Positions 7,108-55,313 of a stretch of 64,000 bases of DNA are shown here, in pieces. Position 1 is the stretch's first letter. Every line of letters starts with the position of its first letter. The position numbers and the translations under genes are program-made. The stretch lies in the IMG/VR virus record IMGVR_UViG_3300045988_187372; one strand, written 5' to 3'. The stretch is from a virus. The notes beneath the pieces were generated by a model that saw nothing but the letters and a program-made list of their open reading frames with translations, had not been told where the DNA came from and ran no database searches.

Positions 7108-7123
7108 AATATGACAGAAAAAA
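7108..7123 (-). promoter_or_regulatory. conserved promoter motif
   Basis: AATATGACAGAAAAAA upstream of 6207..7073. Confidence 0.6.
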
Positions 7124-7264
7124 TGAATTATTATTTTACATAAAATAATTGATGTGTATGAAAATAAGACAGTAACTAAATGTAAATGCCTTTTATTTAT
7201 TAAAATATCCCGTTTTTGTGTTTTTCTAAGCACTTTATTGGGTATACTATGCCTTCGCTTGTAA

Positions 7265-8352: not shown

Positions 8353-9381
8353 TTACATAAAAGATTGTATACTATATCCTTTCCGTCTGAAACGAACTCT
8401 AATCTTTTTTATTGCTTTTGATTCAATCTGTCTGATTCGTTCTCTGGAAACATTCCATTCAGTACCTATATCTTTTAAAGTTTTAACCTTTGAACCATAT
8501 CCCATTCTACTCTTAATTACATATAATTCTCTAGGAGTGAGACAATCTTCAACTTCTTTCCAAAGCAGTTCATTCATTTCTTTTTGAATAATCGTATCTT
8601 CAACTTTAGGTTCAGGAGCTTCTATATAATCAGCCAAACACGAATCGTCATGGCCTTCGTCACTTTGAATAGGTGCATCTAATGAAACCAATTCATTAAA
8701 GCTCTGAATATGTACAAGCATTTCTTTAGTTAAAAGAGGATATCTTTGTTTTACTACATCATATAATTCATCAATTGTAGGTTTTCTTTGAAGTTTATTA
8801 GTTAAATCCACAAATGTAGTCTTAACAAAAGAATCCTGTTCTCTTACATGTACAGGGAATCTAACTAATAAATCATAATTGGCTAATTCTCTATATATAC
8901 TCTGTCTAATCCAATGAGTTGCATAAGTTGAAAATGCATATCCTAATTTATAATCAAACATTTGTATAGCTCTGTATAACCCGAAAATACCGGCCTGACA
9001 TAAATCATCCATTTCAAAACTTTGCGTTTTAGCTGTAACAGCTTTAGCAATACTGATGACTAAACGCATATTAGATAAAATCAATTTTTCAGTTATTTCT
9101 TTTTTCTTTTTAGGATGTTTTTTTATCTCTTCAAATAATTTAAGAGTTTCATCTTTGGATAAAACCGGATAATCAGCGAATGATTTAATATAATAAGTTA
9201 TATTATTTTCTAATAATAGTTTCTCTTTTTCATTTAAAATCTCTTTATCATTTAAAATATCGGTATAATTATCCTCTGATAAAATATTTATGTTTTCTAC
9301 TGATTTATTTGTGTCAAATAATTCATCAACATATTCATCTTTATTGTTTTTTTTATTTAATAATAAATTCTTATCTGCCAT
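8353..9381 (-). CDS. sigma-70 family RNA polymerase sigma factor
   Basis: Region 2 'DLCQAGIFGLYRAIQMFDYKLGYAFSTYATHWIRQSI' and region 4 HTH 'LKDIGTEWNVSRERIRQIESKAIKKIR'. Confidence 0.8.
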   Translation of the reverse strand: MADKNLLLNKKNNKDEYVDELFDTNKSVENINILSEDNYTDILNDKEILNEKEKLLLENNITYYIKSFADYPVLSKDETLKLFEEIKKHPKKKKEITEKLILSNMRLVISIAKAVTAKTQSFEMDDLCQAGIFGLYRAIQMFDYKLGYAFSTYATHWIRQSIYRELANYDLLVRFPVHVREQDSFVKTTFVDLTNKLQRKPTIDELYDVVKQRYPLLTKEMLVHIQSFNELVSLDAPIQSDEGHDDSCLADYIEAPEPKVEDTIIQKEMNELLWKEVEDCLTPRELYVIKSRMGYGSKVKTLKDIGTEWNVSRERIRQIESKAIKKIRVRFRRKGYSIQSFM

Positions 9382-10732: not shown

Positions 10733-10746
10733 ATATGACAGATACA
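10733..10746 (-). promoter_or_regulatory. conserved promoter motif
   Basis: ATATGACAGATACA upstream of 9793..10704. Confidence 0.55.
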
Positions 10747-10772
10747 ATTTTAAAAATCTTTACATAAAAAAA

Positions 10773-10795
10773 TACCGCTGCAATAAACAGCGGTA
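10773..10795 (-). terminator. intrinsic terminator
   Basis: TACCGCTGTTTATTGCAGCGGTA + TTTTTT on minus strand, after DnaE C-fragment. Confidence 0.65.
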
Positions 10796-10816: not shown

Positions 10817-12502
10817 TTAGCATTTGCGTACTATTGAAGGGGCTGACATATCAGGGTTAATGAATTTCTTACATAAATGTTCAATTCCAGTTGTTGAATC
10901 AAGCCAATATAAATAATCTCCATCAACGTCCACCAAATATTCATTAATAGAATCAAGAACATCGTTTACTTCGGAAACAGTACAAATAAATCTATATGAA
11001 GACTTATTTTTCTTTAAAGGTTTAACAGATTTAACAATAATCTGATATACAATTTCGTCATCTGAAGATCTAAAATCATCTACTTGAATTTTTCCTGATA
11101 AACATAATTTAGCATCATTAACAAGTAAGTCTCTAATATTTGCATAATCCTTAGAAAAACATACACCATTAATAGAACCTGTTTTATCTTCTACCTCAAA
11201 AGTTACCCATTCGTATCCATTTCTATCCTTTCTTACAACAAGATTTTTAATTATACCAGATACATCGTTAACTTCTGTTGAAATATCAGAAATGGGATCT
11301 GTATAAATATTATACTCATCAATTGGATGCCCTGTAATATAAACACCTAACACTTCTTTTTCATCATTTAGAATCTGACCTAAATCATCTTCTACATAAT
11401 CAATATCTATATTTTCAAGATCATCTTCTAAGCTTTCTATAACTGTCTTAGCTGAATTGATACGTTTAATTATGGAATCCTTAGTTGGCATCTTTTTTGA
11501 AGTAACTTGAAAGGAAATATTTTCTTCTGAAATTCTTTCCTTAAACTCATCAAGATCAATATAATCTTCCACAAATTCAATAACTTTACTTGCGTTTTCA
11601 ATAAACTTACTCTTTTCTCTGATTTTCTTGATTGTATCCTGAATTTCTTTCATACAAATCATATCTAATGATATCATTGTTCTTGTATAACCAAGGCAAT
11701 CGAAAGCACCTGCTTTAATTAAGGAACTTAATGCTTCTGCATTAATATTTGTTCGTTTGATAAAATCTTTAATATCAGAATATTCGCCATTAGCATTTCT
11801 ATCTTCAACAATTTTAGCTGCTTCTGCTCCAACATTCTTAATATTACTCAGACCATATAAAATATTTCCATCTACAACATCACAATGTAAATTTGAAGCA
11901 TTAATGTCCGGGGGCAATACCTTTACTCCAAAATCAAGAGCATCACTAATATCATCAGCGACTTCATCAATTTTATCAGTATGATTTATTACATTTGTAA
12001 GATAATAAGCCGGATAATAATACTTAAGAAAAGCAGTCCAATATGATGTAACAGCATAAGCAGTGGCATGTGACTTATTAAACGCATACTTAGCAAAGTC
12101 AACCATTGCATCCCAAATCTTATGAGCTATAACTTCTGGAATTCCATTTGCAATACAACCTGGTACTAATGCTTCATTTTCTTTTTTAGTATCAGCATTA
12201 CCATATACAAAAGTGTGTCTTTCAGCATCAATCTCATCCTGATGTTTTTTTGACATAGCTCTACGGACTAAATCAGAACGCCCCCATGTATATCCTGCTA
12301 AATCACGAACAATCTGCATTACCTGTTCCTGATAAACTATCTGTCCATAAGTAGTTGACAAAATTGGCTCTAATTGAGGACATAAATATTTAATCTTAGA
12401 TGCATCCTTTTTACCTTCTATGAAATCAGGTATAAACTTTTCAGGACCAGGACGATATAAAGCATTCATTGCTATTAAATCTTCAATACCTGTTTTATTC
12501 AT
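10817..12502 (-). CDS. dnaE: DNA polymerase III alpha subunit, C-terminal fragment (fingers/HhH/OB)
   Basis: begins ...DLIAMNALYRPGPEKFIPDFIEGKK, then RRAMSKKHQDEI, FNKSHATAYAVTSYWTAFLKYYYPAYY, HhH GLSNIKNVGAEAAKIV; own promoter motif 12538-12553 and terminator 10773-10795. Confidence 0.85.
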   Translation of the reverse strand: MNKTGIEDLIAMNALYRPGPEKFIPDFIEGKKDASKIKYLCPQLEPILSTTYGQIVYQEQVMQIVRDLAGYTWGRSDLVRRAMSKKHQDEIDAERHTFVYGNADTKKENEALVPGCIANGIPEVIAHKIWDAMVDFAKYAFNKSHATAYAVTSYWTAFLKYYYPAYYLTNVINHTDKIDEVADDISDALDFGVKVLPPDINASNLHCDVVDGNILYGLSNIKNVGAEAAKIVEDRNANGEYSDIKDFIKRTNINAEALSSLIKAGAFDCLGYTRTMISLDMICMKEIQDTIKKIREKSKFIENASKVIEFVEDYIDLDEFKERISEENISFQVTSKKMPTKDSIIKRINSAKTVIESLEDDLENIDIDYVEDDLGQILNDEKEVLGVYITGHPIDEYNIYTDPISDISTEVNDVSGIIKNLVVRKDRNGYEWVTFEVEDKTGSINGVCFSKDYANIRDLLVNDAKLCLSGKIQVDDFRSSDDEIVYQIIVKSVKPLKKNKSSYRFICTVSEVNDVLDSINEYLVDVDGDYLYWLDSTTGIEHLCKKFINPDMSAPSIVRKC

Positions 12503-12537
12503 TTTAAATTTCTCCTTTCAATTCATAACTATATAAT

Positions 12538-12553
12538 TTATGACAGAAAATTA
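12538..12553 (-). promoter_or_regulatory. conserved promoter motif
   Basis: TTTATGACAGAAAATT upstream of DnaE C-fragment. Confidence 0.6.
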
Positions 12554-12557
12554 AAAA

Positions 12558-12579
12558 AAGCGTCCAATTTTGGACGCTT
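12558..12579 (-). terminator. intrinsic terminator
   Basis: AAGCGTCCAAAATTGGACGCTT + TTTTTT. Confidence 0.65.
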
Positions 12580-12588
12580 GCATGAATA

Positions 12589-12894
12589 TTAAAAAGAATA
12601 CTTATTACATATATTTTCTTTTATATAAGTGATCAAATTTTTAGCATAATCTATTCTGTCTTTTAATTTATCAATATCATTAATATCATATGAAACATTA
12701 CCAGTAATACTAATATAAAAATCATCTTTTATGGTTTTAATTTCAATATCATAATATGGAATCTTTGGAGTAAAAAAGAATCTTATGACTTTACCTGTTC
12801 TTAAATCTCTTCTTAATAGAATTCTATATGTTTTATTATCGTATTCATCTATTATCCATGGACCGGATTCATATGTTCTAATAAAAGTTACCAT
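12589..12894 (-). CDS. hypothetical protein
   Basis: 101-aa ORF. Confidence 0.5.
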   Translation of the reverse strand: MVTFIRTYESGPWIIDEYDNKTYRILLRRDLRTGKVIRFFFTPKIPYYDIEIKTIKDDFYISITGNVSYDINDIDKLKDRIDYAKNLITYIKENICNKYSF

Positions 12895-13475
12895 TATCTT
12901 ACTTCTTCCTCTCTGTTATCTTTATTAATTTCAGTATGAATTACATCTGGCATAATTTTATCTTCATCATCTTCTCCTCCTAAATCTAAATCAATATCTG
13001 ATAGTTCATTTGTGTCAATATTGTTTGTTATATTACTAATATTAACACTTTTACAATTTTGAGTCATTGCCTTTATAACATCATCTATAGTTTTAGCATC
13101 TCTACCGATTCCGTCAAGATAAAAAGCAGCCGTTACCTGGGCGCAAAAATCTGCGATTATATGTCTATCAGTTGTTTCAGGGCAAAACTTAGGAACATTA
13201 TAATATTCACAATCTCTATTGATTTGGGAACACGCAGCTATTGCAGCTTCATGTTTAATTCTCCGATTTTTATCCATAGACTGAATAGCTTCTCGTAATT
13301 CTTCTCCCTCAAGTGTAGCATATTTAATTGGAGTTGAATAGTTTTGATGATAAACAATCTGTACATATTCTCCAAATGCGGCCATATTGTAATTTAACAT
13401 ATCTAAATCATTCTCTCTATATTCATTATCTGGCGAATTTATTGCATTTACTAATTCCTTAAATTCTTTAATCAT
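12894..13475 (-). CDS. hypothetical protein
   Basis: 193-aa ORF; promoter motif 13513-13527. Confidence 0.5.
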   Translation of the reverse strand: MIKEFKELVNAINSPDNEYRENDLDMLNYNMAAFGEYVQIVYHQNYSTPIKYATLEGEELREAIQSMDKNRRIKHEAAIAACSQINRDCEYYNVPKFCPETTDRHIIADFCAQVTAAFYLDGIGRDAKTIDDVIKAMTQNCKSVNISNITNNIDTNELSDIDLDLGGEDDEDKIMPDVIHTEINKDNREEEVR

Positions 13476-13512
13476 ATTTTTTACTCTCCTTCCATTTATT
13501 GTTATAATAAAT

Positions 13513-13527
13513 AAATGACAGAAAAAT
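13513..13527 (-). promoter_or_regulatory. conserved promoter motif
   Basis: AAATGACAGAAAAAT upstream of 12894..13475. Confidence 0.55.
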
Positions 13528-13531
13528 AAAA

Positions 13532-13559
13532 TAACAAGTACCCATTAATAGGTACTTGT
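13532..13559 (-). terminator. intrinsic terminator
   Basis: AACAAGTACC-TATTAATG-GGTACTTGTT + ATTTTATTTTT. Confidence 0.55.
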
Positions 13560-13574
13560 TATTAAGCATTTGTT

Positions 13575-14021
13575 TTAATTTGAATTACTCTTATCATGTA
13601 CAAAATATAATTTTTGTATTAATTCAGATTTTCTTTTTTCATACTGAAATAAATCATTACATTTACATGATAAAAAACTTGCAGCAGAATCAATCTGTTT
13701 TACAATTTCCTTTACTATACAATCGATGATTTCCTTTGGTGATTCCAATAGTTTAATTAAGCCTAAATGCTCCCCTTCATGAATTATGAAAGCTGTATCT
13801 GGTGTCAAAACTAGCGTTGCTGTAGAGCCTTAAGAATCAAAATAACAGGATGCCGTATTATTGTTATAATAATTAATGCACATATCTAATAAGTCATTTG
13901 GGACATCGGTTAAATATGAAGCGTTTACTCTACAATTTGTCTTTTCGAATTTAATATTACACCAACCATTTGTTAAAATTTCAATTATCATGATTTTCTC
14001 CTTAAATATAATTATAGGCAA
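13575..14021 (-). pseudogene. reading frame interrupted by in-frame TAA (13830-13832)
   Basis: ORFs 13830..14021 and 13575..13808 are in the same frame separated by a single TAA; downstream part has no ATG anywhere and no RBS (track start is TTG). Confidence 0.4.
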
Positions 14022-14893
14022 ACAATGTTGCCATTTTTAAGTATACTTATAATACTGTTAAGTTCATACAAACCTAATATCTGCTCACTAATTTCATTTA
14101 ACATATTATCTGATACATTAGCGTTATAAGCATCAAGTTCTACATCTGTTTTTATTGTTGCTAAAATTTTTGACAACAAAATATTATCTTCACTATTTAT
14201 TAAACAAGTTGAAATACTTTTTCCTTTAGACATATTAGATTCAATATCTGAAATATTCATATATATGTTAAACAAATTTCCATACTTATGTATTAGTTTA
14301 CTTGCAGTTTTAGGACCAATACCTGCAGCTCCAGGAATATTATCCGATTTATCTCCCATTAATGTTTTTACATCAATAAACTGTTTAGGAGTAACGGAAT
14401 ACTCATTCATAATTTCTACCGGAGTCCAAATATCTTCCGGGTTGTTTGGAACAACTAATGATACTAAATCATTACATAATTGTAACAAATCATGATCTGC
14501 AGATATAATATTAACCTTATTTCCGGCTTTACTTTCAATAGTTGAAATTGTTCCTATAATATCATCTGCTTCATATCCTTCTTTTTCAATAACACATATA
14601 TTCATTGTTTTAAGAATAGGAACAATAGCCTGTCTCTGAATCTTAAATTCTTCCGGTGCAGGATCTCTAGTTGCCTTATACCCGTTATACATTAAATGCC
14701 TGAAAGTTGGCTTTGCAGTATCAAACGCAACAATTAATTCATCAGGACTATACTTTTCTTTCATATATAGAATTGTATTTAAAGCTCCTTTAATTGCATT
14801 AGTCGGAAATCCCTTTGAGGTTTTTAATTCTGGAACACCGTAAAAAGATCTTCTGAGAATGTAATTCCCATCAAAAATCATAATATTTTTCAT
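14012..14893 (-). CDS. 5'-3' exonuclease / flap endonuclease (Pol I N-terminal domain-like)
   Basis: MKNIMIFDGNYILRRSFYG... typical FEN N-terminus; true start ATG 14893 with RBS AAAGGAGAAAAATTA; promoter motif 14925-14940 lies inside the longer track ORF. Confidence 0.8.
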   Translation of the reverse strand: MKNIMIFDGNYILRRSFYGVPELKTSKGFPTNAIKGALNTILYMKEKYSPDELIVAFDTAKPTFRHLMYNGYKATRDPAPEEFKIQRQAIVPILKTMNICVIEKEGYEADDIIGTISTIESKAGNKVNIISADHDLLQLCNDLVSLVVPNNPEDIWTPVEIMNEYSVTPKQFIDVKTLMGDKSDNIPGAAGIGPKTASKLIHKYGNLFNIYMNISDIESNMSKGKSISTCLINSEDNILLSKILATIKTDVELDAYNANVSDNMLNEISEQILGLYELNSIISILKNGNIVCL

Positions 14894-14924
14894 TAATTTT
14901 TCTCCTTTATAATTTTTAATATAT

Positions 14925-14940
14925 TTATGACAGAAAAAAA
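14925..14940 (-). promoter_or_regulatory. conserved promoter motif
   Basis: TTTATGACAGAAAAAAA upstream of FEN start 14893. Confidence 0.6.
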
Positions 14941-15001
14941 GCAGGAAACATAAGTCTCCCGCTTTCAAAAAATCTTATTCAGTTATGAAAAATTAAAATA
15001 T

Positions 15002-15259
15002 TCAATTTCTTTCACTTAAGAATTTTTCCACAGCATCTTCAACAGCTTCATATTCAGTAAGACCGTTACCTTCTGCGTAAGTATCATAAGCTGCTTCACC
15101 AATATCAATATAATCATTCTCAGTAATATCAGAATGATACTGAGGCTGAATAATCTCTTTAGCTGTATTAATCATCCATGTTGAAACAAATTCCTTATGA
15201 GCAGCATAAATTTCGTCATATGTTAATTTTATTTCCTTACCATTTCTTATTATTGTCAT
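15002..15259 (-). CDS. small acidic protein
   Basis: 85-aa ORF. Confidence 0.5.
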   Translation of the reverse strand: MTIIRNGKEIKLTYDEIYAAHKEFVSTWMINTAKEIIQPQYHSDITENDYIDIGEAAYDTYAEGNGLTEYEAVEDAVEKFLSERN

Positions 15260-15272
15260 GTCTTATTCTCCT

Positions 15273-15479
15273 TTAGTTGTTATTATTTTCGTCAGAATTA
15301 TCATATATGACGCTTTCAATTATATTAACCGCTGTATTTACATAAATAACTTCCTCGCCATCATCGTTAGAATATCCATCGTCATCATATGTACTTTCAG
15401 TCAACCAACTTGTCTCAGAGACTTCTATAGAAGCTTCTGAAATCTCACTTATTAAAGTATTTTTAATGATATTTAACAT
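15273..15479 (-). CDS. small highly acidic protein (DNA-mimic-like composition)
   Basis: 68 aa rich in D/E; preceded by repeat element copy 1. Confidence 0.45.
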   Translation of the reverse strand: MLNIIKNTLISEISEASIEVSETSWLTESTYDDDGYSNDDGEEVIYVNTAVNIIESVIYDNSDENNNN

Positions 15480-15510
15480 ATTCTTTTCTGTTTCTGATTC
15501 TGAAGTTTTA

Positions 15511-15570
15511 ATGAACTACTCACAACCGACATTAGTCGGATGGAGTTTTCTTGCAATTCTTCGATAATAT
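15511..15570. repeat. 60-nt conserved structured repeat, copy 1
   Basis: ATGAACTACTCACAACCGACATTAGTCGGATGGAGTTTTCTTGCAATTCTTCGATAATAT. Confidence 0.7.
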
Positions 15571-15598
15571 TTAAAGTTTTCATGAAATCCCTTTCTTT

Positions 15599-16057
15599 TT
15601 ACAATGTACTTTTTATAACTTTAACAGGTTCTAATCTGCCATTTATAAATGAAGCCGTTCCTAATGTTTTGTCAGTATTTTCAGAAGATTCAAAGAAATC
15701 ATTTGCCATATCCTCATTTGAAAAATATGAATATTCTCCTGAATTGTCTCCACTATCTGACTCATATCCTATCCATACATAATATAATGAAAAGCTTTCA
15801 AGGCTATCACTGTCTTCAGGGATTTCTCCATCCCAATCATCATTTTCTTTTATATCTTCTTCTAATTCATATTTAAACTCGCTCATCATATTAGGATCGT
15901 CTAAATATACACATTTATGGTAATTATCAACTGCAATTGCGCATTTCTGTCCTAATGGATGCAATAAATAATTCTTAGGCACTTCCAATAATGCTTTTAT
16001 CATATCATTTACTGTTTCTAAGTTGTTTTCCTTAATTTCAAATGCGTTAGTTTTCAT
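15599..16057 (-). CDS. acidic hypothetical protein
   Basis: 152-aa ORF; promoter motif 16093-16106; terminator 16113-16135. Confidence 0.5.
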   Translation of the reverse strand: MKTNAFEIKENNLETVNDMIKALLEVPKNYLLHPLGQKCAIAVDNYHKCVYLDDPNMMSEFKYELEEDIKENDDWDGEIPEDSDSLESFSLYYVWIGYESDSGDNSGEYSYFSNEDMANDFFESSENTDKTLGTASFINGRLEPVKVIKSTL

Positions 16058-16092
16058 AATTTTATTCTCCTTTTTAAATTTTATAATAATAC

Positions 16093-16106
16093 AATGACAG
16101 AAAAAT
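16093..16106 (-). promoter_or_regulatory. conserved promoter motif
   Basis: CAATGACAGAAAAA upstream of 15599..16057. Confidence 0.55.
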
Positions 16107-16112
16107 AAAAAA

Positions 16113-16135
16113 ACTGGCTACTAATAGTAACCAGT
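16113..16135 (-). terminator. intrinsic terminator
   Basis: ACTGGTTACTATTAGTAGCCAGT + TTTTTTT, immediately followed by promoter motif. Confidence 0.65.
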
Positions 16136-16141
16136 TTAATT

Positions 16142-17131
16142 TTATAACTTTACAATTTTCTCATTGATTTTCATTCTAAATGTATTGATTTTGTCTATAT
16201 CTGGCTCATCTGGCAATACAGAGTTTTTACATGCATTTTCAAACTTATTCTTGTATTCATCTACTATTTCAAAAAACTGTTTATTAGGGATTCCATTTTC
16301 ATCAAGATATACACCATTTCTAATATCCATCAACAAATCATGTTCTTTAATTCTTTTCGTTTGAATTTTCCCTTCAGAAACTAAATCAATTCCCATCATA
16401 TACAATCTAAGTAAATGCATACTATGTTTTGCTATTTTACCATGATTTAATGCATGTTCATTCCTTTTACTTGTTTTCCGGTAATCTCTTAAAGTGTTAT
16501 TAAATTCTGAAAGCATTCCTAACAAATCTTCCATTGAACACTGTGTTGCAATAATATTACATTTGATTTTGCCATCAAACAAATAAAAAGACACATTATT
16601 TTCATCTAAATTGTACTTATCATTCATTTTCTTGGACATATTATTAAGCACTCCAGAAATGTGTCTATTTAATTCTTCCTCAGTTAAAGCAGCGTTGGTC
16701 TTCTGCTGCATACGGTATAACTGTTGTAATGCATATTCACTAAATGTATTAATACATCTATTCGATAAAAAAATATCTTTATTTTTTAATAAAAGCTCCC
16801 CAATTTCATTTTTATAAATATAATCATCTGTATCTAATCCTAAAAGTTCAATAGTGTTTGGATTGCATTTTGTTAATAAATCAATAATTTTGTCAAAACT
16901 ATAAATAGTTGTATCTGTATTAACATCTACAAAATTTTCAAAATCATTACCTAACAAGATATCTTCTTTTCTTCTAACAGCAACTCCTCTTATATCAATA
17001 TCGCTTTCTGGAAGATTTGTCCCATATGCTCTGCTACCACCTAATCCAAGTATACAAATATTCTTATCTAAATTTTGATTTTCCTTTAAAAATGAATACT
17101 CAGGCATATTTAATATATTTTTATTTATCAT
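16142..17131 (-). CDS. Pol-beta superfamily nucleotidyltransferase
   Basis: GLGGSRAYGTNLPESDIDIRGV = GS-x(9-13)-DxD minimal NTase signature; repeat element copy 2 in 5'UTR. Confidence 0.6.
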   Translation of the reverse strand: MINKNILNMPEYSFLKENQNLDKNICILGLGGSRAYGTNLPESDIDIRGVAVRRKEDILLGNDFENFVDVNTDTTIYSFDKIIDLLTKCNPNTIELLGLDTDDYIYKNEIGELLLKNKDIFLSNRCINTFSEYALQQLYRMQQKTNAALTEEELNRHISGVLNNMSKKMNDKYNLDENNVSFYLFDGKIKCNIIATQCSMEDLLGMLSEFNNTLRDYRKTSKRNEHALNHGKIAKHSMHLLRLYMMGIDLVSEGKIQTKRIKEHDLLMDIRNGVYLDENGIPNKQFFEIVDEYKNKFENACKNSVLPDEPDIDKINTFRMKINEKIVKL

Positions 17132-17154
17132 ATTCTCTTTCCTATCCTTGTAAT

Positions 17155-17213
17155 TGAACTACTCGCAACCGGCTATTGTCGGTTGGAGTTTTCTTGCTTA
17201 ATTGCGATAATAT
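17155..17213. repeat. 60-nt conserved structured repeat, copy 2
   Basis: TTGAACTACTCGCAACCGGCTATTGTCGGTTGGAGTTTTCTTGCTTAATTGCGATAATAT. Confidence 0.7.
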
Positions 17214-17220
17214 CATTCTT

Positions 17221-17853
17221 TTATTTTCTAACAATAGCAGAAAAATCTACTGACTGTAAAATCTTAATGATATCTTCTACTTCAGGACTTCTCCATGCAG
17301 TCATAGCATAGGTATGAGCGTACTCATCATAATGATAATGATTTGCTTTTAGGTGTTCAGCGGCTGCCTTTTCTGTTAAAAACATTGTGTTTTCATAAAT
17401 TTTATCTCTATATGCATAACAGGTGAAAGTATATCTGCCATAATTATGCTCATTCAACCAAGTCTTTAAATCATCAAGATCAGTTAAGTATTCCTCATAA
17501 TCATTATCTTCTTTTGATGTGATATAATATCCATCATATTCTTTTGAAATAACCCAAGAGTCACCGTTTTCTTCAAATTCCTTATTAAAAAATACAATTG
17601 CATCATCAATATTATCAGCAACTTCTTCTACAGCTTCATTATCGATTAGTGTTACACCGTCTTCATATCCTTCTGGAACAATACACTTTTCTTTTCCCAT
17701 AATAACCCAAAATCGAGGATCAGCTTGTCCTACATGGTCCTGTGTATTTAATTCATGCTGCAAATCAGACAAAAATTTGATTTCTTTATCTGTAATTTTA
17801 TGTTTCTCTACTGTGTCTGGATGGTATTGTAAATGTTCATAAAATATTGCCAT
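17221..17853 (-). CDS. acidic hypothetical protein
   Basis: 210-aa ORF. Confidence 0.55.
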   Translation of the reverse strand: MAIFYEHLQYHPDTVEKHKITDKEIKFLSDLQHELNTQDHVGQADPRFWVIMGKEKCIVPEGYEDGVTLIDNEAVEEVADNIDDAIVFFNKEFEENGDSWVISKEYDGYYITSKEDNDYEEYLTDLDDLKTWLNEHNYGRYTFTCYAYRDKIYENTMFLTEKAAAEHLKANHYHYDEYAHTYAMTAWRSPEVEDIIKILQSVDFSAIVRK

Positions 17854-17880
17854 ATTTTTCTCCTTAAACTTTATTTATTT

Positions 17881-18117
17881 TTATTCAGTATAGTATTGGA
17901 ATGCACAATCATACATTTGTTTCCCAGTTATCTGATCTGTGAATATAGGACAATGCCAATCCTTATCAAATCCTGTTTCCTTACACCATTCATTAATAAC
18001 TCTAGTAGTAATTGGTGTGACAAACACATATAAATCTGATTCATGGTGAAAGATATCTTTTTCAGAATATCCAGCCTCAATAAGCCGTTGCATAAGAGTT
18101 TTATTATTTTTCTCCAT
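17881..18117 (-). CDS. hypothetical protein
   Basis: 78-aa ORF; promoter motif 18155-18169. Confidence 0.5.
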   Translation of the reverse strand: MEKNNKTLMQRLIEAGYSEKDIFHHESDLYVFVTPITTRVINEWCKETGFDKDWHCPIFTDQITGKQMYDCAFQYYTE

Positions 18118-18154
18118 AATATTGTTCTCCTTTATTTATTATAATTTAAAAGAA

Positions 18155-18169
18155 ATATGACAGAAAAAA
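18155..18169 (-). promoter_or_regulatory. conserved promoter motif
   Basis: AATATGACAGAAAAA upstream of 17881..18117. Confidence 0.6.
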
Positions 18170-18221
18170 CGCACATCATAATGACATGCGTTTTAATACA
18201 AAATATTCAATTAACTATTCA

Positions 18222-20771
18222 CTATGAACATAACTTCTTAAGGTTATTCCTCATACCGGCTGACTCAAACTGGAAAACATTCTTAGTTCTTCCTTTTGCA
18301 TATACTTCTTTGTATACCTTATCAGCTTTAGGACCCTCTAATGGAATATTCATTACATCAATTACTTCTCCTGTATCTCTCTGAATCATTCTGAGTGTGT
18401 CGGTAATAATTGTAAGAGTTTTTAATCCAAGAAAATCCATTTTTAATAATCCATTAGCTTCGCACTGAATCATATCCATTTCTGTAGTTTTAATTCCCTT
18501 TTTTCCATCTCTAATAGGAATATAATCAGTAACATCATTACTATCATAAATAATAACACCTGCGGCATGTTGTCCGTATGTCGTAAGCATACCTTCACAA
18601 TGAGCTGCAATATTAAGAATAGAAATAGCATCTGGATTACTATTATATTCATCCTTTAAGAAATCTAACAAAGAAATGCTGTCCTGAATATTAATGCCTA
18701 ATTCATCAACCTTATTAGTATCTTTCATGCCAACAATATCTTCAAAATTAGTTGCTTTAGCAGGCACTTTCTTACGAATCTGATCTCCTAAAGATAAGAA
18801 TTTCTTTTCATCATCATAAGCTTTCTTTCCATAATATCTTGCAGCATCTCTGATAGCACCTTTAGCCTGCTGTCTTGATTCTGTAATAATTCCAACAACA
18901 GCTTCACTACCATATTTAGCTCTTACATACTCAATTGTCTTTTCTCTTACTCCAAGAGCAAGATCACTATCGATATCAGGCATACTTACTCTTTCTGGAT
19001 TTAAGAATCGTTCAAAAATCAGATTATACTTAAATGGATCAATTCCGGTAATACCAAGTAAATATGTAACCAATGAACCGGCACCTGAACCTCTTCCAAT
19101 GCCTATTCCAATTCCGGTATTATAATTGTGAGCCTTAACATACTCTTTTGCACCTTCAATTGTTAAAGGTACTTCTGATAGTTTATCCATAGGTACTAAT
19201 CCACAAATTCTTCCATATTCCAGGAAGTCCTTTACAATTAAATGATAATCGGCAAAGCCCATCTGAATGATAATATTAAGTTCGTATTCCATTCGTTTCT
19301 GATGTTCTTCATCCCATCCTTTTCCGTTAGGATATCTCCAATTAATTCCCTTAATTGCTTCAGATCTTAATAATTCGTTTGAGTCCTTGTTCTTATCAAA
19401 TACTGGATAATGATTAGATTTTTCTGGAATATAAGCACATCTTTTTCCAATTACATTTAAGTTATTGAGTGCTTCTGCAACCTGATCATCTGTTAATATA
19501 GCTGATAAGGCCTGAGCAAGTTCGTAAGGTGTTTTTACATATAACTCTTTATCTGATTCCGACTCACTTATCTTAATAAATCTTAAAAATTTAGCTACAT
19601 TACGCATATCAATACTTCTATCAGAATTATCTGCCATATGTGCATCATTAGCAGCAACTAATGGGATATTATGCTTCCTTGCTAACTGAGCTAACACAGG
19701 ATATGTTCTGCTTTCCATTTCAAGCCCATGATTCTGAACTTCAATGTAATAATTACCTGCTCCAAAAATTTCCTGATAAAAAAGCATTGTCTTTTCTGCT
19801 TCAGACATTAATTCTATTGGGCTTTTCTTTAATGATTCATAATGCTGTATCTTATTTTCATGATTAATATATTCCTCTACTTTAAGACTTATATCCTTTA
19901 ACTCGGCTTTCTTAGCATTAACTAATTTTCTGACATTAGGAATTTTATCTTTAGCTTCCAGAATTTTATTATTTATCTCCTCATATTCGTTAATCAGTTT
20001 AATAAGCTCTGGATCATCATCATTTAAACACTTTCTTGCATCTCTTAATTTTCTTGAAATCTGTGTTCTTTCTGATTTAAGTTCCTTGGAATCACGAATA
20101 TTAATCAATTCATCTAAATCTGCCGATACCCTTTCAAATTCATCTTTAGCTGAAAGATATTCTTTATCATCAGGACTTATACAATCACGTATAACTAGCT
20201 CGTCTTTTTCAGTAGTATGCTGCTGTGCTTTTCTTTCTCTGTTAATCATTTTATCCAAAACATCATCTGATAATAATTGCAGAGCTGGTGCACCCGAAAC
20301 GCAAGCTGAAGTTGCTATTATATCACCGTTAAAGTTATATTTCTTTAAATCTGATATTGTAATAACAGGCTTTCCCATTCTTTTTTCAGAAGCCTTAGAA
20401 TTTAACTTATCAATAATATGCTTGCCTCTTTCTGAAGTGGCTAACATAATAATATGGCCAATCTGTTCATTTATCTTAAATGGTGGCACTTCAATATAAG
20501 CCTCTACGCCATAAATGATATTAAATGGATGTTCCTCAGTACTTATTTTCTTAGCGTAATCAATACATGTTTGCATTGCTGAAAATGATGCATGGTCCGT
20601 AACAGCAAATTTAGTATATCCTGCATTAAATGCAGCATCTAAATAACTTTTAGGTTCATCTACGGCATCAAACAAAGAGCCTCCTGGATGGTTATGTTCA
20701 CACACTGTAACTCCTGATTCAATAACCTTTTTTGTTAATTCTCCAATTTTTACATGTTCAAACATTGACAT
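18222..20771 (-). CDS. dnaE: DNA polymerase III alpha subunit, N-terminal fragment (PHP + palm)
   Basis: AVTDHASFSAMQ (PHP), YIEVQNHGLEME...PLVAANDAHM, PDIDSDLAL, KMDFLGLKTLTII, ends QFESAGMRNNLKKLCS* exactly where the C-fragment gene resumes; promoter 20805-20820. Confidence 0.9.
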   Translation of the reverse strand: MSMFEHVKIGELTKKVIESGVTVCEHNHPGGSLFDAVDEPKSYLDAAFNAGYTKFAVTDHASFSAMQTCIDYAKKISTEEHPFNIIYGVEAYIEVPPFKINEQIGHIIMLATSERGKHIIDKLNSKASEKRMGKPVITISDLKKYNFNGDIIATSACVSGAPALQLLSDDVLDKMINRERKAQQHTTEKDELVIRDCISPDDKEYLSAKDEFERVSADLDELINIRDSKELKSERTQISRKLRDARKCLNDDDPELIKLINEYEEINNKILEAKDKIPNVRKLVNAKKAELKDISLKVEEYINHENKIQHYESLKKSPIELMSEAEKTMLFYQEIFGAGNYYIEVQNHGLEMESRTYPVLAQLARKHNIPLVAANDAHMADNSDRSIDMRNVAKFLRFIKISESESDKELYVKTPYELAQALSAILTDDQVAEALNNLNVIGKRCAYIPEKSNHYPVFDKNKDSNELLRSEAIKGINWRYPNGKGWDEEHQKRMEYELNIIIQMGFADYHLIVKDFLEYGRICGLVPMDKLSEVPLTIEGAKEYVKAHNYNTGIGIGIGRGSGAGSLVTYLLGITGIDPFKYNLIFERFLNPERVSMPDIDSDLALGVREKTIEYVRAKYGSEAVVGIITESRQQAKGAIRDAARYYGKKAYDDEKKFLSLGDQIRKKVPAKATNFEDIVGMKDTNKVDELGINIQDSISLLDFLKDEYNSNPDAISILNIAAHCEGMLTTYGQHAAGVIIYDSNDVTDYIPIRDGKKGIKTTEMDMIQCEANGLLKMDFLGLKTLTIITDTLRMIQRDTGEVIDVMNIPLEGPKADKVYKEVYAKGRTKNVFQFESAGMRNNLKKLCS

Positions 20772-20804: not shown

Positions 20805-20820
20805 ACATGACAGAAAAAAT
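20805..20820 (-). promoter_or_regulatory. conserved promoter motif
   Basis: ACATGACAGAAAAAAT upstream of DnaE N-fragment. Confidence 0.6.
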
Positions 20821-20849
20821 ACACCAGTTGACTAATCTCAACTGGTGTA
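20820..20849 (-). terminator. intrinsic terminator
   Basis: TACACCAGTTGAGATTAGTCAACTGGTGTA + TTTTTT. Confidence 0.65.
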
Positions 20850-20882
20850 TAAATACACATTATTTAATTGTTAATTATTTTA

Positions 20883-24637: not shown

Positions 24638-24757
24638 TTGTTAAATCCCTTCTTAATTAAAATATTTTTTAAAGACATTTAATATATGACAGATTTAATT
24701 ACTCATTTTTTTACATAAAAAAAGAGATGGTTTTTGCCACCTCTTTTTTAAAATAAT

Positions 24758-31202: not shown

Positions 31203-32777
31203 TTACTTAGTAGAATTCTTTTCTGACTTAGACACTTTTTCAGGAACATTCTTTACAGTTACCTTAATCTCCGGATCAGCATCTTCTGGAATGCCTGTAA
31301 AGTTCACATTCTTTGTTGTCTTGGCATCATATGTATTAGCCTTCATTACTTCTGTAAGATCAAAACCGGTTGTTTCCTTAACAGATTCAATTGTCTTTGC
31401 AAGTACTGATGGTACATTACTGCTAAATGAACCTACTCCGGTTTCTCCATTACCACTATCAATAATTGTTACCTTATCAATAGCTTCTAATGGCTTTGCA
31501 ATAGCTCCTGCCATCTCAGGAAGTACCTTGATAATCATTTCAGTCATGGCAGCCTTACCATACTTAGCCATTGCATCTGCTTTCTTCTCCATAGCTTCAG
31601 CTTCAGCTAATCCCCTTGCCTTAATACTTTCAGCATCAGCAACACCTTTTGCCTTAATACTCTCTGCTTCTGCAAAGCCCTGTGCCTTAACTGCTTCAGC
31701 TTCCTGTTCCTTAGCAAATCTGTCTGCTTCTGCCTGTGATTTCTTAGCTTCAGCCTGCTTCTGAATTTCAAACTGCTTTGCTTCTGCTTCCTTCTGTCTC
31801 TGATAAAGTTCTGCATCTGCCTTCTGCTGTGCTGCATACTTTTCAGCTTCAGCCTGCTTACGGATATCAGCATCAAGTGTCTTTTCCTTAACAGTGATTT
31901 CCTTTTCTCTTAATTCAATTTCCTTTTCCTGCTTTGCAATATTAGCATTGGCAGTTGTAATTTCAATTGTCTTTCTCTGTTCCTGCTGCTGGATTTCATA
32001 TGCCGCATCAGCTTCAGCCTTCTTGACATCTGCTGCTCTCTTTAATTCCTGCTTCTTAATCTCAAGTTCATTATTTCTTTCTGCAATAGCTGTCTCAGCT
32101 TCAATTCTTGCATCATTAGCCTGCTTTTCAGCATTAGCCTTTGCAACTGCAATATCTCTTTCTGATTCTGCTCTTGATATCTGTGCTGACTTACTGATAC
32201 TTACAACCCTGTCAATACCAAGGTTTTCAATAACATTACCTTCATCAGTAACATTCTGAACATTAAAGCTTACAATTTCAAGACCCATTCTTTCCATATC
32301 AGGAGCAGCATTCTCCTGTACCTTTTCAGCAAATAACTTTCTGTCCTGTACAATATCCTCAAGCTTCATCTGTCCTATAATTTCACGGACATTACCTTCA
32401 AGTACATCTACAACTGATTCTCTGATATAATCTGAATTTTTATTAAGGAAGTTACTTGCCGCTTTCCCAAGCATTTCAGGTGATGAACCAATCTTAATCT
32501 TTACAGCAGAATCAATATTAACATTGATATACTCATTTGTTGGTACTGATTCCTTTGTCTTGACATCAACAGAAATCATCTTTAAATCAAGTTTATCAAC
32601 TCTCTGTAAAAATGGTATCTTAAGTGATGACCTTCCAATTACATACTTAGGTGTCTTTCTAAGTCCTGATACAATAAGTGCCTTGTCTGTCGGAGCCTTA
32701 ATATAACTTGCAAATAATAATGCAATTAATACTACAACCACCGCTACTACAATTCCAATCGTTACTTCAATTCCCAT
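31203..32777 (-). CDS. flotillin / SPFH (band-7) domain protein
   Basis: N-terminal TM helix, SPFH core (KALIVSGLRK...ISVDVKTKE...), long Ala/Glu/Lys-rich coiled coil. Confidence 0.8.
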   Translation of the reverse strand: MGIEVTIGIVVAVVVVLIALLFASYIKAPTDKALIVSGLRKTPKYVIGRSSLKIPFLQRVDKLDLKMISVDVKTKESVPTNEYINVNIDSAVKIKIGSSPEMLGKAASNFLNKNSDYIRESVVDVLEGNVREIIGQMKLEDIVQDRKLFAEKVQENAAPDMERMGLEIVSFNVQNVTDEGNVIENLGIDRVVSISKSAQISRAESERDIAVAKANAEKQANDARIEAETAIAERNNELEIKKQELKRAADVKKAEADAAYEIQQQEQRKTIEITTANANIAKQEKEIELREKEITVKEKTLDADIRKQAEAEKYAAQQKADAELYQRQKEAEAKQFEIQKQAEAKKSQAEADRFAKEQEAEAVKAQGFAEAESIKAKGVADAESIKARGLAEAEAMEKKADAMAKYGKAAMTEMIIKVLPEMAGAIAKPLEAIDKVTIIDSGNGETGVGSFSSNVPSVLAKTIESVKETTGFDLTEVMKANTYDAKTTKNVNFTGIPEDADPEIKVTVKNVPEKVSKSEKNSTK

Positions 32778-32905: not shown

Positions 32906-32920
32906 AATATGACAGATATT
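32906..32920 (-). promoter_or_regulatory. conserved promoter motif
   Basis: AATATGACAGATATT; transcript passes through repeat copy 3 before flotillin start. Confidence 0.55.
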
Positions 32921-32994
32921 TAATTTATTTTTTTTACATAAAAAAATGGCTATGTTTTCACATAGCCATTCAGGAGGGAGGTTTAAATTTATTG

Positions 32995-44804: not shown

Positions 44805-44820
44805 TTTATGACAGACAAAA
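44805..44820 (-). promoter_or_regulatory. conserved promoter motif
   Basis: TTTATGACAGACAAAA upstream of start 44771. Confidence 0.5.
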
Positions 44821-44882
44821 AAATTTTTTTTCTTACACAAAAAAAATAGTGCCATTTCTGACACTATTAAAACTTGGATATA

Positions 44883-46910: not shown

Positions 46911-46926
46911 AAAATATGACAGATTT
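46911..46926 (-). promoter_or_regulatory. conserved promoter motif
   Basis: AAATATGACAGATTTA; transcript passes through repeat copy 5 before UvrD-like helicase. Confidence 0.55.
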
Positions 46927-46960
46927 ATAGTGGATTTTTCTTACATAAAAAAAGAGAAGC

Positions 46961-52979: not shown

Positions 52980-55313
52980 TTATCCAAACTGTTGTCTTTT
53001 TATTAAAATATTATTATATATTTCATCCCAGTATTTATTTATAGCATCAATTTCTTGTTGATCAGTTAATGCGTTCTTATCGATAATAACATCATCAAGA
53101 CTTTTTATAACAGTATTAGCAGTTTTATAATCTGAAATATTAGTATTCTCAGCTTCTTTTAAAGCATCATATGCTTTTTTGTAACAAAAACTGGCATTTT
53201 CATAATTAGGAAAATCGATTTGGAAAAAATCTTTTTTACCAGAATTATAATTACATTTTTTTCCTTCCCAGTCAATATAATGCTCATAAATAGTTTCAGG
53301 TTTCTCAAATTCCTTATTATCTAAATTCTGGTGCAAATATTCATTAAACTGCTTCCATATTTCTCCACATATTGCTGAACCATTATCAAAATTTTTAGGA
53401 ATATCATATCCGGTCCATATACATGTTGTGTAATATGGTGTATATGCACATAGCCAAGAGTCCTTGTTATCATTCGTTGTTCCAGTTTTTCCTGCACAAA
53501 TCTGATTATCTATTTGATAATTTTTGACGTATCCTTCTGTAAAATTTGAAATTAAACAATCTGTCATCATATAAGCGGTGCCTTTTTTATATACTTGAAT
53601 ATCTTCTTTATTTTGATATATTTCTTCATTTTGACGCAACATATGTTTGATGCATGTATTATTATTGTATTTACCATTATTAGCTAATGCATTGTATGCT
53701 TTAGTCATGTTTTCTACTGTTACACCATTTGTAAAACCACCTATGGCAATTGCAGCATTATTATTATCTTCATATGAAATATTATAAAAGTGCATTTTAT
53801 TTAAATACTCTAAACAATTATTTATTCCAACATTCATTAATGTTTTAACAGCCGTTGTATTGACTGATTGTAATAAAGCTGTTCTTACTGAAATATTGCC
53901 TCTGTAATATCCATCATGATTTTTAGGCTGATATTTACCCTCAAGTGGAGAATCCAAAATCATAGATGATGGATGATAGTCTAAAATATCAAAAGCCGGA
54001 GCATAATCTAATATTGGTTTAATGGAAGAGCCTGGTTGTCTAGGAGATTGATATGCTCTATTTATATATTCATTATCTTCTTGTCCACCTATAATTGCTC
54101 TAACATATCCAGTTTCATTATCAATACACATGGATGATGTTTGAAGAAGATGCCGCCCATCCTCGGATAAGCTGTTATCATATTGTGATAAAACATTTTT
54201 TGAAATTTGTAATAGCTCAAGCTGCTTATCTTTATCTATTGAAGTATATATCCTGTATCCTCCAGTTAATATTTCTTCTTTGTACTTAGAGTATATTTTA
54301 TTATATTGATTAATATAATCTTGCTCATCTTCTGAAGAATCAAAAAGGTATTTAAAATTAAATCTATTTATTTCCATAAGATATTCAATAGAACATTTAA
54401 GTGTATATGAAAATTCATAAGATGTTGGTAAATCAGATGTTTCTTTATATAAAATTAAATCAAGAGGATCTTCTAATGCTTCATTGTATTGTTTTTCTGT
54501 AATTATTTTCTGATTATACATTGTATTAAGGACTTGATTTCTTTTACATATTGCTAATTCATAATTTGTTTCAGGATTATATTTTGTAGGGGCATTTGAA
54601 ATACCTATTAACATTGCGGCCTGAGATATTGTTACATCAGATGCATCACATCCAAAATAATATTTACAAGCTGCCTGAATTCCGTAACAATTGCTGCCAT
54701 AGAAATTAGAGTTTAAATACATTTCAAGTATTTGTTCTTTAGAATATGATTTTTCCATTTCAAGTGATGCTATTATTTCAGTAAGTTTTCTATCTATTGT
54801 TTTGTTTGAATTTTTTATAACAATATTTTTTACAACTTGTTGTGTGATTGTACTGCCGCCCTGAGTTATTTTCCCTTTATTCTTTATATAAGCCAAAGAA
54901 GCTCGTAACAATGCTTTAGCATCAATACCTTTATGAATATAGAAATTCTTATCTTCCACAGCAATATATCCTTGTATTATATAATCACTGACATCGCTGA
55001 TATTAACATATTCATAAGAGCCGTTAATATTAGCTGCCATTAATGTACCGTCATCATAATAAAAGTATGTATTCAGTTCTTTATTAAATTCATCTTGGTT
55101 CATATTTTGTAATGACTCATACGCATTCTCCTGTGCCAATTTGAATTTACTATAAAATTTGATATAAAATACTGATAATGATATTAAAGATAATAATATG
55201 ACTATCATAATAATCAATATAAAAATTTTAAATATGGTTAAAAGATGATTTTTCTGTTTTTTTAGTGGAATATTTTTATCATCATTATAAAGTGGTTGTT
55301 TTTTAGAACTCAT
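52980..55313 (-). CDS. class A penicillin-binding protein (glycosyltransferase + transpeptidase)
   Basis: N-terminal TM anchor; GT51 motifs [12 protein letters not shown] and GGSTITQQ; transpeptidase SxxK (PGSSIKP), SVN, KTGTT. Confidence 0.85.

Follow-up and report, generated by a model that had tools for sequence, protein, structure and literature searches.

The window described here is the whole of a 64,000-nt (64 kb) stretch of viral DNA, IMG/VR record IMGVR_UViG_3300045988_187372, which is about 28% GC and carries almost all of its genes on the minus strand. It encodes DnaE, the alpha subunit of DNA polymerase III (Pol III), in two genes, dnaE-N and dnaE-C (below, N and C), that are held apart by a block of other genes:

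18222..20771, minus strand: dnaE-N, 849 amino acids (aa)
12589..18117, minus strand: variable cargo between the two halves, 10 genes
10817..12502, minus strand: dnaE-C, 561 aa

DnaE is thus not specified here by a single polypeptide: the two open reading frames (ORFs) lie 5,719 nt apart, and N is closed by a double stop. An initial annotation, made from the sequence, had described both minus-strand ORFs, and they are confirmed, with the domains from PHP to OB divided between them. It had also placed 11 genes in a gap of about 6 kb; the gap measures 5,719 nt and contains ten genes, the eleventh having arisen because a 138-aa gene contains an in-frame stop and reads as two ORFs.

In Pfam searches the N protein matches PHP (PF02811, E=1.9e-18), DNA_pol3_alpha (PF07733, E=1.4e-66) and positions 1-59 of the 166 positions of the finger model PF17657, and the C protein matches finger positions 63-162, HHH_6 and an OB fold. 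Complete fingers, the HhH module and the C-terminal OB fold in DnaE order are present only when N and C are taken together. The three catalytic residues of the Pol-beta-like palm, Asp599, Asp601 and Asp779, are all on N and are invariant in split N proteins; N further includes the thumb and ~60 residues from the start of the fingers. The fingers motifs YQEQ, RRAMSKK and FNKSH are invariant across C proteins. The PHP metal ligands of N (H26, H28, D35, H60, E90, H106, C157, D376 and H378) form a complete set, invariant in a 45-sequence alignment, and the domain is probably an active exonuclease. An AlphaFold2 (AF2) model of N has a mean predicted local distance difference test score (pLDDT) of 92.2 and a predicted template modelling score (pTM) of 0.84, and Foldseek matches it to the Taq, Mycobacterium tuberculosis and E. 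coli Pol III alpha subunits at E ~1e-35 (2hpi/7pu7). The model of C has a pLDDT of 87.0, with lower values (~70) over its first 20 residues; NCBI labels this protein an 'OB-fold nucleic acid binding domain-containing protein'. In the model of N, the PHP domain appears to carry an all-helical insertion of ~135 residues (residues ~200-336, ~19764-20174), predicted with good confidence and including one helix of ~60 residues (254-314); this insertion is common to the DnaE proteins of this phage group and absent from bacterial DnaE.

The two halves abut almost exactly. On the phrog_405 profile, N covers positions 48-660 and C positions 661-1103; on M. tuberculosis DnaE1 (7pu7), N aligns to residue 651 and C begins at 651; and in an alignment against PDB entries residue 6 of C corresponds to residue 628 of E. 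coli alpha. The halves are complementary to within one or two residues on DnaE profiles, and these three alignments bear out the initial view that they are contiguous on DnaE with essentially no residues lost. The break was placed by Pfam and PHROG profile positions and by the secondary structure of the AF2 models, not by published sub-domain limits. The PF07733 match runs to N residue 782 and the finger match starts at 785, which puts the cut ~65 residues inside the fingers; the boundary between palm and fingers, which had been put forward as the breakpoint, does not survive the alignment. In the models, the break is a loop between two fingers helices, N 838-847 and C 6-16. N ends with the first of these and a Cys-Ser pair (...GMRNNLKKLCS), followed by TAG TGA. 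C begins MNKTG-IEDLIAMNALYRPGP, behind a Shine-Dalgarno sequence (SD) of its own, and five non-helical residues precede its helix (IEDLIAMNALY).

The residues beyond conserved DnaE sequence number two after LKKL in N and five before IEDL in C, and the intergenic DNA amounts to 104 nt after N and 86 nt before C. Neither protein has a Pfam match to a Hint or intein domain. There is no N-intein, only Cys-Ser standing between the last DnaE helix and the stop of N, and no C-intein ending in HN-C/S/T before C, whose five leading residues run directly into DnaE sequence. The absence of a split-intein signature, already noted in the initial annotation, is therefore upheld. No group I or group II intron RNA lies between the halves according to an Rfam search of the whole window, and no recombinase domain was found by Pfam in the gap genes scanned.

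Both halves stand behind a similar regulatory cassette, in which a terminator hairpin and T-run are followed by the octamer TCTGTCAT and an SD:

20807..20850, minus strand: cassette upstream of N; terminator hairpin 20850-20819, T-run, TCTGTCAT at 20814-20807, SD (AAAGGAGG) ~30 nt later
18157..18192, minus strand: after the N stop; imperfect hairpin and T-run, then TCTGTCAT at 18164-18157 heading the next unit
16094, 14927 and 13515: TCTGTCAT cassettes inside the gap
12540..12579, minus strand: cassette upstream of C; terminator hairpin 12579-12558, T-run, TCTGTCAT at 12547-12540, SD (GAAAGGAG)
10735..10795, minus strand: after C; terminator 10795-10773, next TCTGTCAT at 10742-10735

A terminator scan called the hairpins upstream of N, upstream of C and downstream of C; the one behind N, seen by eye, is weaker and imperfect and was left uncalled. 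N is apparently a monocistronic unit, set apart by this hairpin, its T-run and the next TCTGTCAT. The window contains 41 copies of the octamer, where 2.4 would be expected; 34 of the copies are on the gene strand, and 23 of these 34 lie 41-50 nt upstream of an SD and ATG. The octamer typically follows a hairpin and T-run directly. From this enrichment and position we infer that TCTGTCAT is promoter-like. In diverged relatives, TCTGTCAT or a degenerate form of it is found ahead of both halves. Some TCTGTCAT sites of the window have no hairpin and carry instead, ~12-14 nt upstream, the sequence TTTTTTTATGTAA(A/G)AAA with small variations; examples, all on the minus strand, are 46916-46953, 44808-44845, 32909-32946, 24686-24723, 10735-10772, 7111-7148 and 1392-1429. 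These may form a second promoter class, perhaps read by the element's sigma factor (8353-9381).

The same layout recurs at 99% identity in L010 (a 157-kb NCBI contig from a metagenome-assembled genome (MAG) labelled Lachnospira pectinoschiza), L011 (Logan), and L014 and L015 (IMG/VR), and it is seen in NCBI, Logan, ENA and IMG/VR assemblies produced by different assemblers. Clustering at 90% identity gave 17 N-only clusters of 808-893 aa, at 47-99% identity, to which L017 adds a case at ~38%; all 17 stop at LKxL (LKQM in P0018) plus 1-3 residues, and the matching C-only proteins begin just before IEDxIAMNALYRPGP. We call this break site A; no PHROG family matches the site-A halves. Both halves are under strong purifying selection, the ratio of nonsynonymous to synonymous polymorphism (pN/pS) between near-identical strains being 0.015-0.065 for N and 0.056-0.075 for C, compared with the looser values of ~0.1-0.4 of most gap genes with enough substitutions. 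N and C are both present in every split genome from which both regions were retrievable, and their identities fall together from genome to genome (73/63, 61/57, 55/53 and 55/50%). The flanks are syntenic, with a UvrD helicase region upstream of N and a Rce1-like gene downstream of C, joined in closer relatives by the sigma factor gene. Eight C proteins (P0131, P0136, P0137, P0138, P0141, P0142, P0146 and P0150) have extra N-terminal extensions of 40-100 aa before the IEDII helix; in the two that were scanned, P0131 and P0146, the extension is without a Pfam domain, although the finger match of P0146 reaches residue 30. Such extensions might be added docking or regulatory modules.

What varies among these genomes is the gap:

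L012/L013: 125 nt, no gene
L008: 0.8 kb, an ADP-ribosyltransferase-like gene and a 32-aa ORF
L017: 3.9 kb, AAA_5 and CobT_C
L001 (73%-identical relative): 4.0 kb, eight genes including FEN
window: 5.7 kb, ten genes
L004/L006: ~18 kb, MCM-like AAA, metallophosphatase, HNH, UvrD, PARP, ParA and Rep3

The 125-nt spacer of L012 is a single cassette, made up of hairpin, T-run, motif and SD. L008 has two copies of a 75-nt cassette, 92% identical, one right after the N stop and one right before the C ATG, with a 715-bp insert between them; L001 has three copies of the cassette in its gap. A neighbour-joining tree of concatenated N and C (1,255 columns, 200 bootstraps) places all site-A splits, together with the full-length protein P0007, in one clade (90%), sister to the unsplit pair P0019/P0025 (98%). 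Because the same break is accompanied by gaps of 125 nt to 18 kb within one clade, the split is ancestral and the 5.7-kb block came later. The internal nodes of neighbour-joining trees built from N only and C only are poorly supported and leave the unsplit relatives unplaced.

P0007 (L003:10001-14212) is a DnaE of 1,403 aa nested inside the split clade. Its sister is L012, the genome with the 125-nt gap, when N and C are concatenated (90%), and P0009 when the tree is built from N alone (79%). Its linker, LKELL-HDGKG-SIEDII, is without the Pro-x seen in every other full-length relative of that alignment, retains the hydrophobic residue typical of split N tails, and resembles an N tail (compare LKQLL-EV, followed by the stop) joined to a C head (compare MEDIVKGNI-SIEDI). 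P0007 is a probable secondary re-fusion of the halves by deletion. In other lineages, DnaE is split at a second site, B, ~30 residues downstream of site A. In L018 (182 kb; L018:7314-11611), N ends ...YRPGPLDSIPEYIEGALKARAN, followed by the stop, C starts MIFKETDQDIALLDDILGDTYG, and the 89-nt spacer contains a hairpin, a T-run, CTTTCAT and an SD, with no ORF. The site-B proteins are P0021, P0023, P0152-P0155, P0269, P0270 and P0273; at the 50%-identity level, the type has four representatives (P0269, P0270, P0273 and P0275) among the best 150 matches. Site B would have been split independently of site A. Among the site-B representatives, P0275 combines a split at site B with a Pro-less, re-fusion-like linker at site A (LKQLL-SGKKA-TIEDL).

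Other interruptions of the gene were seen in relatives. The 99%-identical strain L014 carries a 940-bp insertion (L014:11795-12734) that is absent from the window, L010 and L015. It lies between N codons 598 and 599 (window ~18977/18978), exactly before the codons of the catalytic DIDSD, and encodes a 172-aa HNH_3/NUMOD4 endonuclease ORF. Its ends look group-I-like, in that the exon ends in U and the element in G, with a possible GCCU/GGGC P1 pairing; Rfam gave no meaningful match on the insertion even at E<=10. This intron-bearing allele, with exon ORFs of 613 and 252 aa, is very common in the protein cluster, and interruptions at this position also occur in relatives at 47-66% identity and in PHROG families 12219 and 13169. 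In P0276, the break comes right after FRPGP and is followed by an intron-like read-through tail (KYCWGFSVNPITQGCAA) resembling that of the L014-type insertion, so that a third site in this zone may hold a related mobile element. An apparent three-piece DnaE (P0054 plus P0167, on a 205-kb contig, L016:10001-12513) was rejected: the additional break of N in this JGI assembly comes from a 1-nt indel that is absent from the ENA assembly of the same genome, L017:3560-6073, and is probably a sequencing or assembly error.

Taken as a whole, these data make it likely, in our judgement, that the element has a noncovalent two-subunit DnaE with a composite active site, that the split was born of a regulatory cassette, and that the gap grew later. 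The enzyme must stay two chains, since no intein parts exist, and its active site must be composite, since the aspartates are on N and the invariant fingers motifs on C. The N subunit would supply PHP, the palm with its three aspartates, the thumb and the first fingers helices; from the C subunit would come the remaining fingers, whose conserved motifs are those presumed to contact the incoming nucleotide, along with the DNA-binding HhH module and the OB fold. Since each gene sits behind a hairpin, TCTGTCAT and SD cassette of the same class, co-expression of the two is probable. That the halves act together, as the initial annotation presumed, is very probable from their co-inheritance, in-step divergence, purifying selection and shared-out active-site elements. 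As to origin, the gene would have been split once in the ancestor of the clade, most likely by insertion of one regulatory cassette of ~90-125 nt. A viable fission needs a stop or terminator upstream and a promoter, SD and ATG downstream, as spelled out by Dassa et al. (PMC2677866), and insertion of a cassette is the simplest origin because it would provide all of these in one step. The new intergenic site would then have become a hyperplastic spot, at which repeat-flanked gene cassettes were gained and lost by recombination, giving gaps from 0.1 to 18 kb, the 5.7-kb block of the window among them. At least one lineage (P0007) would have re-fused the halves, and others would have split the gene independently ~30 residues downstream.

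Some observations weigh against this reading or loosen parts of it. A generic sigma-70 promoter scan stayed at background (76 against 83 in shuffles); an element-specific motif analysis was used because that scan gave no support, and the promoter role given to TCTGTCAT is drawn entirely from enrichment and position. The initial proposal of an individual promoter and terminator for each fragment accordingly stands with qualifications: TCTGTCAT precedes both halves, the sigma-70 scan is at background, and the hairpin behind N is weaker and imperfect. The AF2 models are of separate chains. The anatomy of the locus, its conservation, the selection on it, the variability of the gap and the duplication of cassettes are observed directly; that the two chains assemble and are active, that the motif acts as a promoter and that the events took place in the order given is what we infer. 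The trees are neighbour-joining trees with limited taxa, and several fissions at one loop could take the place of one fission and a re-fusion. The window is 64 kb of a replicon of maybe >300 kb, elsewhere on which a second polymerase may sit. Finally, insertion of a cassette and loss of an earlier homing-endonuclease or intron insert are indistinguishable as the original cause.

The latter alternative, in which a homing endonuclease or mobile intron broke the fingers loop and was later lost or replaced, the cassettes being remnants, would lead to the same two-subunit end state. We think it unlikely, and yet of some weight because the gene family is riddled with such elements: the L014 HNH insert sits at the DxD codons, a site also interrupted in relatives and PHROG families, P0276 has its intron-like tail after FRPGP, and HNH genes adjoin or lie within the gap in L004. 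A gene-breaking model of this kind was indeed proposed by Dassa et al. (PMC2677866). On the other hand, the Pfam scan of the gap genes, from which the 68-aa ORF was left out, gave no endonuclease domain, the minimal spacers of 125 and 89 nt contain hairpin, motif and SD only, and Rfam detects no intron in the window. Much less probable is the model of the initial annotation, according to which the 12.5-18.2 kb island, with its FEN, nucleotidyltransferase and small acidic proteins, split an intact dnaE here. The island does fill precisely the space between N and C, and the 73%-identical L001 likewise has FEN in its gap. The same break is found, however, with a gene-free spacer of 125 nt (L012), an ADP-ribosyltransferase insert (L008), AAA_5 and CobT (L017) and an unrelated 18 kb (L004/L006), so that the genes in the gap are largely different elsewhere, and all of these variable-gap genomes fall in one clade. 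No unsplit relative closer than ~55% identity was found, and the split predates the block.

Three further readings concern what becomes of the products. The halves could have diverged to separate functions, for instance with N acting as a PHP nuclease or an impaired polymerase and C binding DNA through OB and HhH, and the annotation of C as an OB-fold protein only, the distance of up to 18 kb between the genes and the 40-100-aa extensions of some C proteins would fit this. We hold it to be improbable: both halves accompany each other and diverge in step, one lineage re-fused them into a DnaE of normal length, and loss of polymerase function is unlikely because polymerase motifs are invariant on both sides. 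A covalent joining of the halves, by split intein, trans-splicing, ribosomal bypass or a skin-element-like excision, is more improbable still. Translational bypass is known from T4 gene 60, and here a gap of 5.7 kb rules it out. Split inteins do join cyanobacterial dnaE and three environmental dnaE loci (PMC2677866), but in the window there is no Hint domain, no Cys1 and no HN-C/S/T, and the tails have 2 and 5 residues; N ends in the double stop TAG TGA, a terminator precedes C, which starts from an SD and ATG of its own, and the Rfam and recombinase searches described above found neither an intron in the window nor a recombinase domain in the gap genes scanned. The least credible possibility is an assembly artefact or a decaying pseudogene, dnaE being in truth contiguous, or dead. 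Metagenomic assembly errors do occur, as the 1-nt indel of L016 relative to L017 illustrates; nevertheless, the layout recurs in independent NCBI, Logan, ENA and IMG/VR assemblies and in clusters of 251 and 203 members, the catalytic residues are invariant, and pN/pS values of 0.015-0.075 show the halves to be under purifying selection. The two ORFs are not an artefact of assembly.

The cargo between the halves, from the N side to the C side and all on the minus strand, is as follows:

78 aa
210 aa (phrog_3205)
16142-17131: RlaP-type nucleotidyltransferase
152 aa
68 aa
85 aa
14012-14893: FEN / 5'-3' exonuclease
13575-13991: 138-aa gene
12894-13475: DUF3232
101 aa

The FEN exonuclease and a nucleotidyltransferase appear in the initial annotation as well. 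FEN, RlaP and DUF3232 are the only Pfam matches among the gap ORFs, the small ORFs scanned being without a match. All ten genes look expressed, each standing behind one of several promoter-like cassettes. No endonuclease of the HNH, GIY-YIG, LAGLIDADG or Vsr-like type was found between the halves by Pfam, in a scan that left out the 68-aa ORF. The 138-aa gene is intact in L010; in the window, an in-frame stop at 13827-13829 divides it into ORFs of 63 and 77 aa. Two of the gap spacers (15512-15570 and 17155-17213) share a 59-nt intergenic repeat with a hairpin, at 80% identity.

Downstream of C, headed by the TCTGTCAT at 10742-10735, lies a conserved block on the minus strand, with a Rce1-like/CPBP gene, a 131-aa ORF and a sigma-70-type factor. 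The window also contains a replication and repair module, made up of two UvrD helicases, RecJ, a RecA/UvsX-like protein, a primase-like protein, a methylase and the sigma factor. Cargo unusual for a phage-like element, all on the minus strand, comprises:

52980-55313: class A penicillin-binding protein (transglycosylase and transpeptidase)
31203-32777: flotillin/SPFH
58454-59740: PARP-like
56866-58080: HD-GYP-type HD_5 protein

No virion genes were found among the window ORFs scanned, and no tRNA in a scan of the whole window, for which Rfam at the gathering threshold returned 0 matches. A megablast of the region against GenBank phages gave no match, a search of a plasmid collection gave distant unsplit dnaE genes only, and genome contigs scanned with the N protein gave no match, so that the sole pointer to a host is the MAG label 'Lachnospira pectinoschiza'. 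Contigs at 99% identity are classed as viral by IMG/VR. The clusters that contain these exact proteins have 251 members for N and 203 for C, and the contigs involved reach ~325-718 kb, a length that far exceeds the 157 kb of the NCBI contig. ParA, Rep3, IS605 and Tn7-like genes occur near the locus in relatives, and transposable elements are found directly upstream of N in two of them: IS605 TnpA/TnpB in L008 (L008:8215-9754) and Tn7-like TnsA/TnsB with one further gene in L012 (L012:2652-5851). A huge replicon or an integrated one may be involved, and the element could be a jumbo phage, a phage-plasmid or a megaplasmid.

Replicative polymerases are, in the textbook description, single-chain catalytic subunits. 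A deep clade of abundant gut elements, phage-like, large and low in GC, maintains its full-length DnaE in the form of two chains, which would imply that the fingers can assemble from two polypeptides, with the catalytic carboxylates on one and the remaining fingers motifs on the other. The break is a natural split site for protein engineering, and the relatives, with gaps of 0.1-18 kb, one re-fusion and a second site, form a comparative series for the study of gene breakage, of its tolerance and of the growth of hyperplastic regions. The locus also carries a warning for annotation, the C half being labelled at present as an OB-fold protein only. We further suggest, tentatively and as something rather less than probable, that a short mobile terminator-promoter-SD cassette cut an essential gene into two working cistrons in one step, at least twice within ~45 residues of the fingers (sites A and B) and reversibly, as in P0007, and that the new site, enclosed by the halves of an indispensable enzyme, was then a long-lived landing pad on which accessory genes accumulated. 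If true, genes of large phages could quite generally be broken, and their hyperplastic regions formed, in a way that has so far gone unrecognised, and engineers of two-piece family-C polymerases would have a split point already validated by nature.

In the literature searched, we found no description of an intein-less split in the fingers of a full-length DnaE, only intein-based or minimal-module cases. The former are the cyanobacterial DnaE and the 'fractured' environmental dnaE loci, which have a split intein and, in the latter, a free-standing endonuclease (PMC2677866). There, as here, DnaE comes from two possibly distant genes broken in the fingers region; those halves, however, are ligated by protein trans-splicing, whereas intein parts are absent here, and their classical intein site is found ~60 profile positions further downstream, with the intein of P0079 at finger position ~121 of 166 as against 59/63 here. 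The latter case is the minimal Pol III alpha of group 2.2 (T4-like) jumbo phages, encoded by two distant genes predicted to reconstitute one enzyme (Iyer et al. 2021, PMC7824862). That module is without PHP, HhH and OB, is split in the nucleotidyltransferase core and accompanies a family-B polymerase, unlike the full-length PHP-to-OB DnaE described here, which is cut inside the fingers. The cassettes recall the PeSL promoter-terminator cassettes, by which genes are shuffled in modular fashion in T4-type phages (PMC2839356, PMC4122927): a hairpin terminator and a promoter-like motif are repeated at gene boundaries, and duplicated copies surround insertions or deletions, as in L008 and L001. They differ in their motif, TCTGTCAT, in the phage group and in the presence of a cassette inside a formerly essential coding region.

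Essential enzymes of large phages in two polypeptides are also known from Aeh1 NrdA, split by mobE, and the T4 topoisomerase genes 39/60, split by mobA (PMC2988022). Those enzymes still function, and their insert is a recognisable homing endonuclease, of which none was detected in the gap of the window. The closest precedent is gp43A/gp43B, the family-B polymerase of the T4-related Aeromonas phages 44RR and 25, which is split without an intein into products that co-purify and are active; the interruption is an untranslated intercistronic spacer in one phage and an inserted seg endonuclease gene in phage 25 (Petrov and Karam; reviewed in PMC2988022). It too is a phage replicative polymerase made as two intein-less cistrons, and it poses the same question of whether insert or spacer came first. 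The enzyme of the present elements belongs to family C, whose fold is unrelated to that of family B, and the gap, which in gp43A/gp43B is at most 2-3 kb with one endonuclease, spans 0.1 to 18 kb here and can hold 10 or more unrelated genes. Unlike gp43A/gp43B, moreover, the split of DnaE has been kept across a deep clade, at 38-99% identity, and there is evidence of its reversal.

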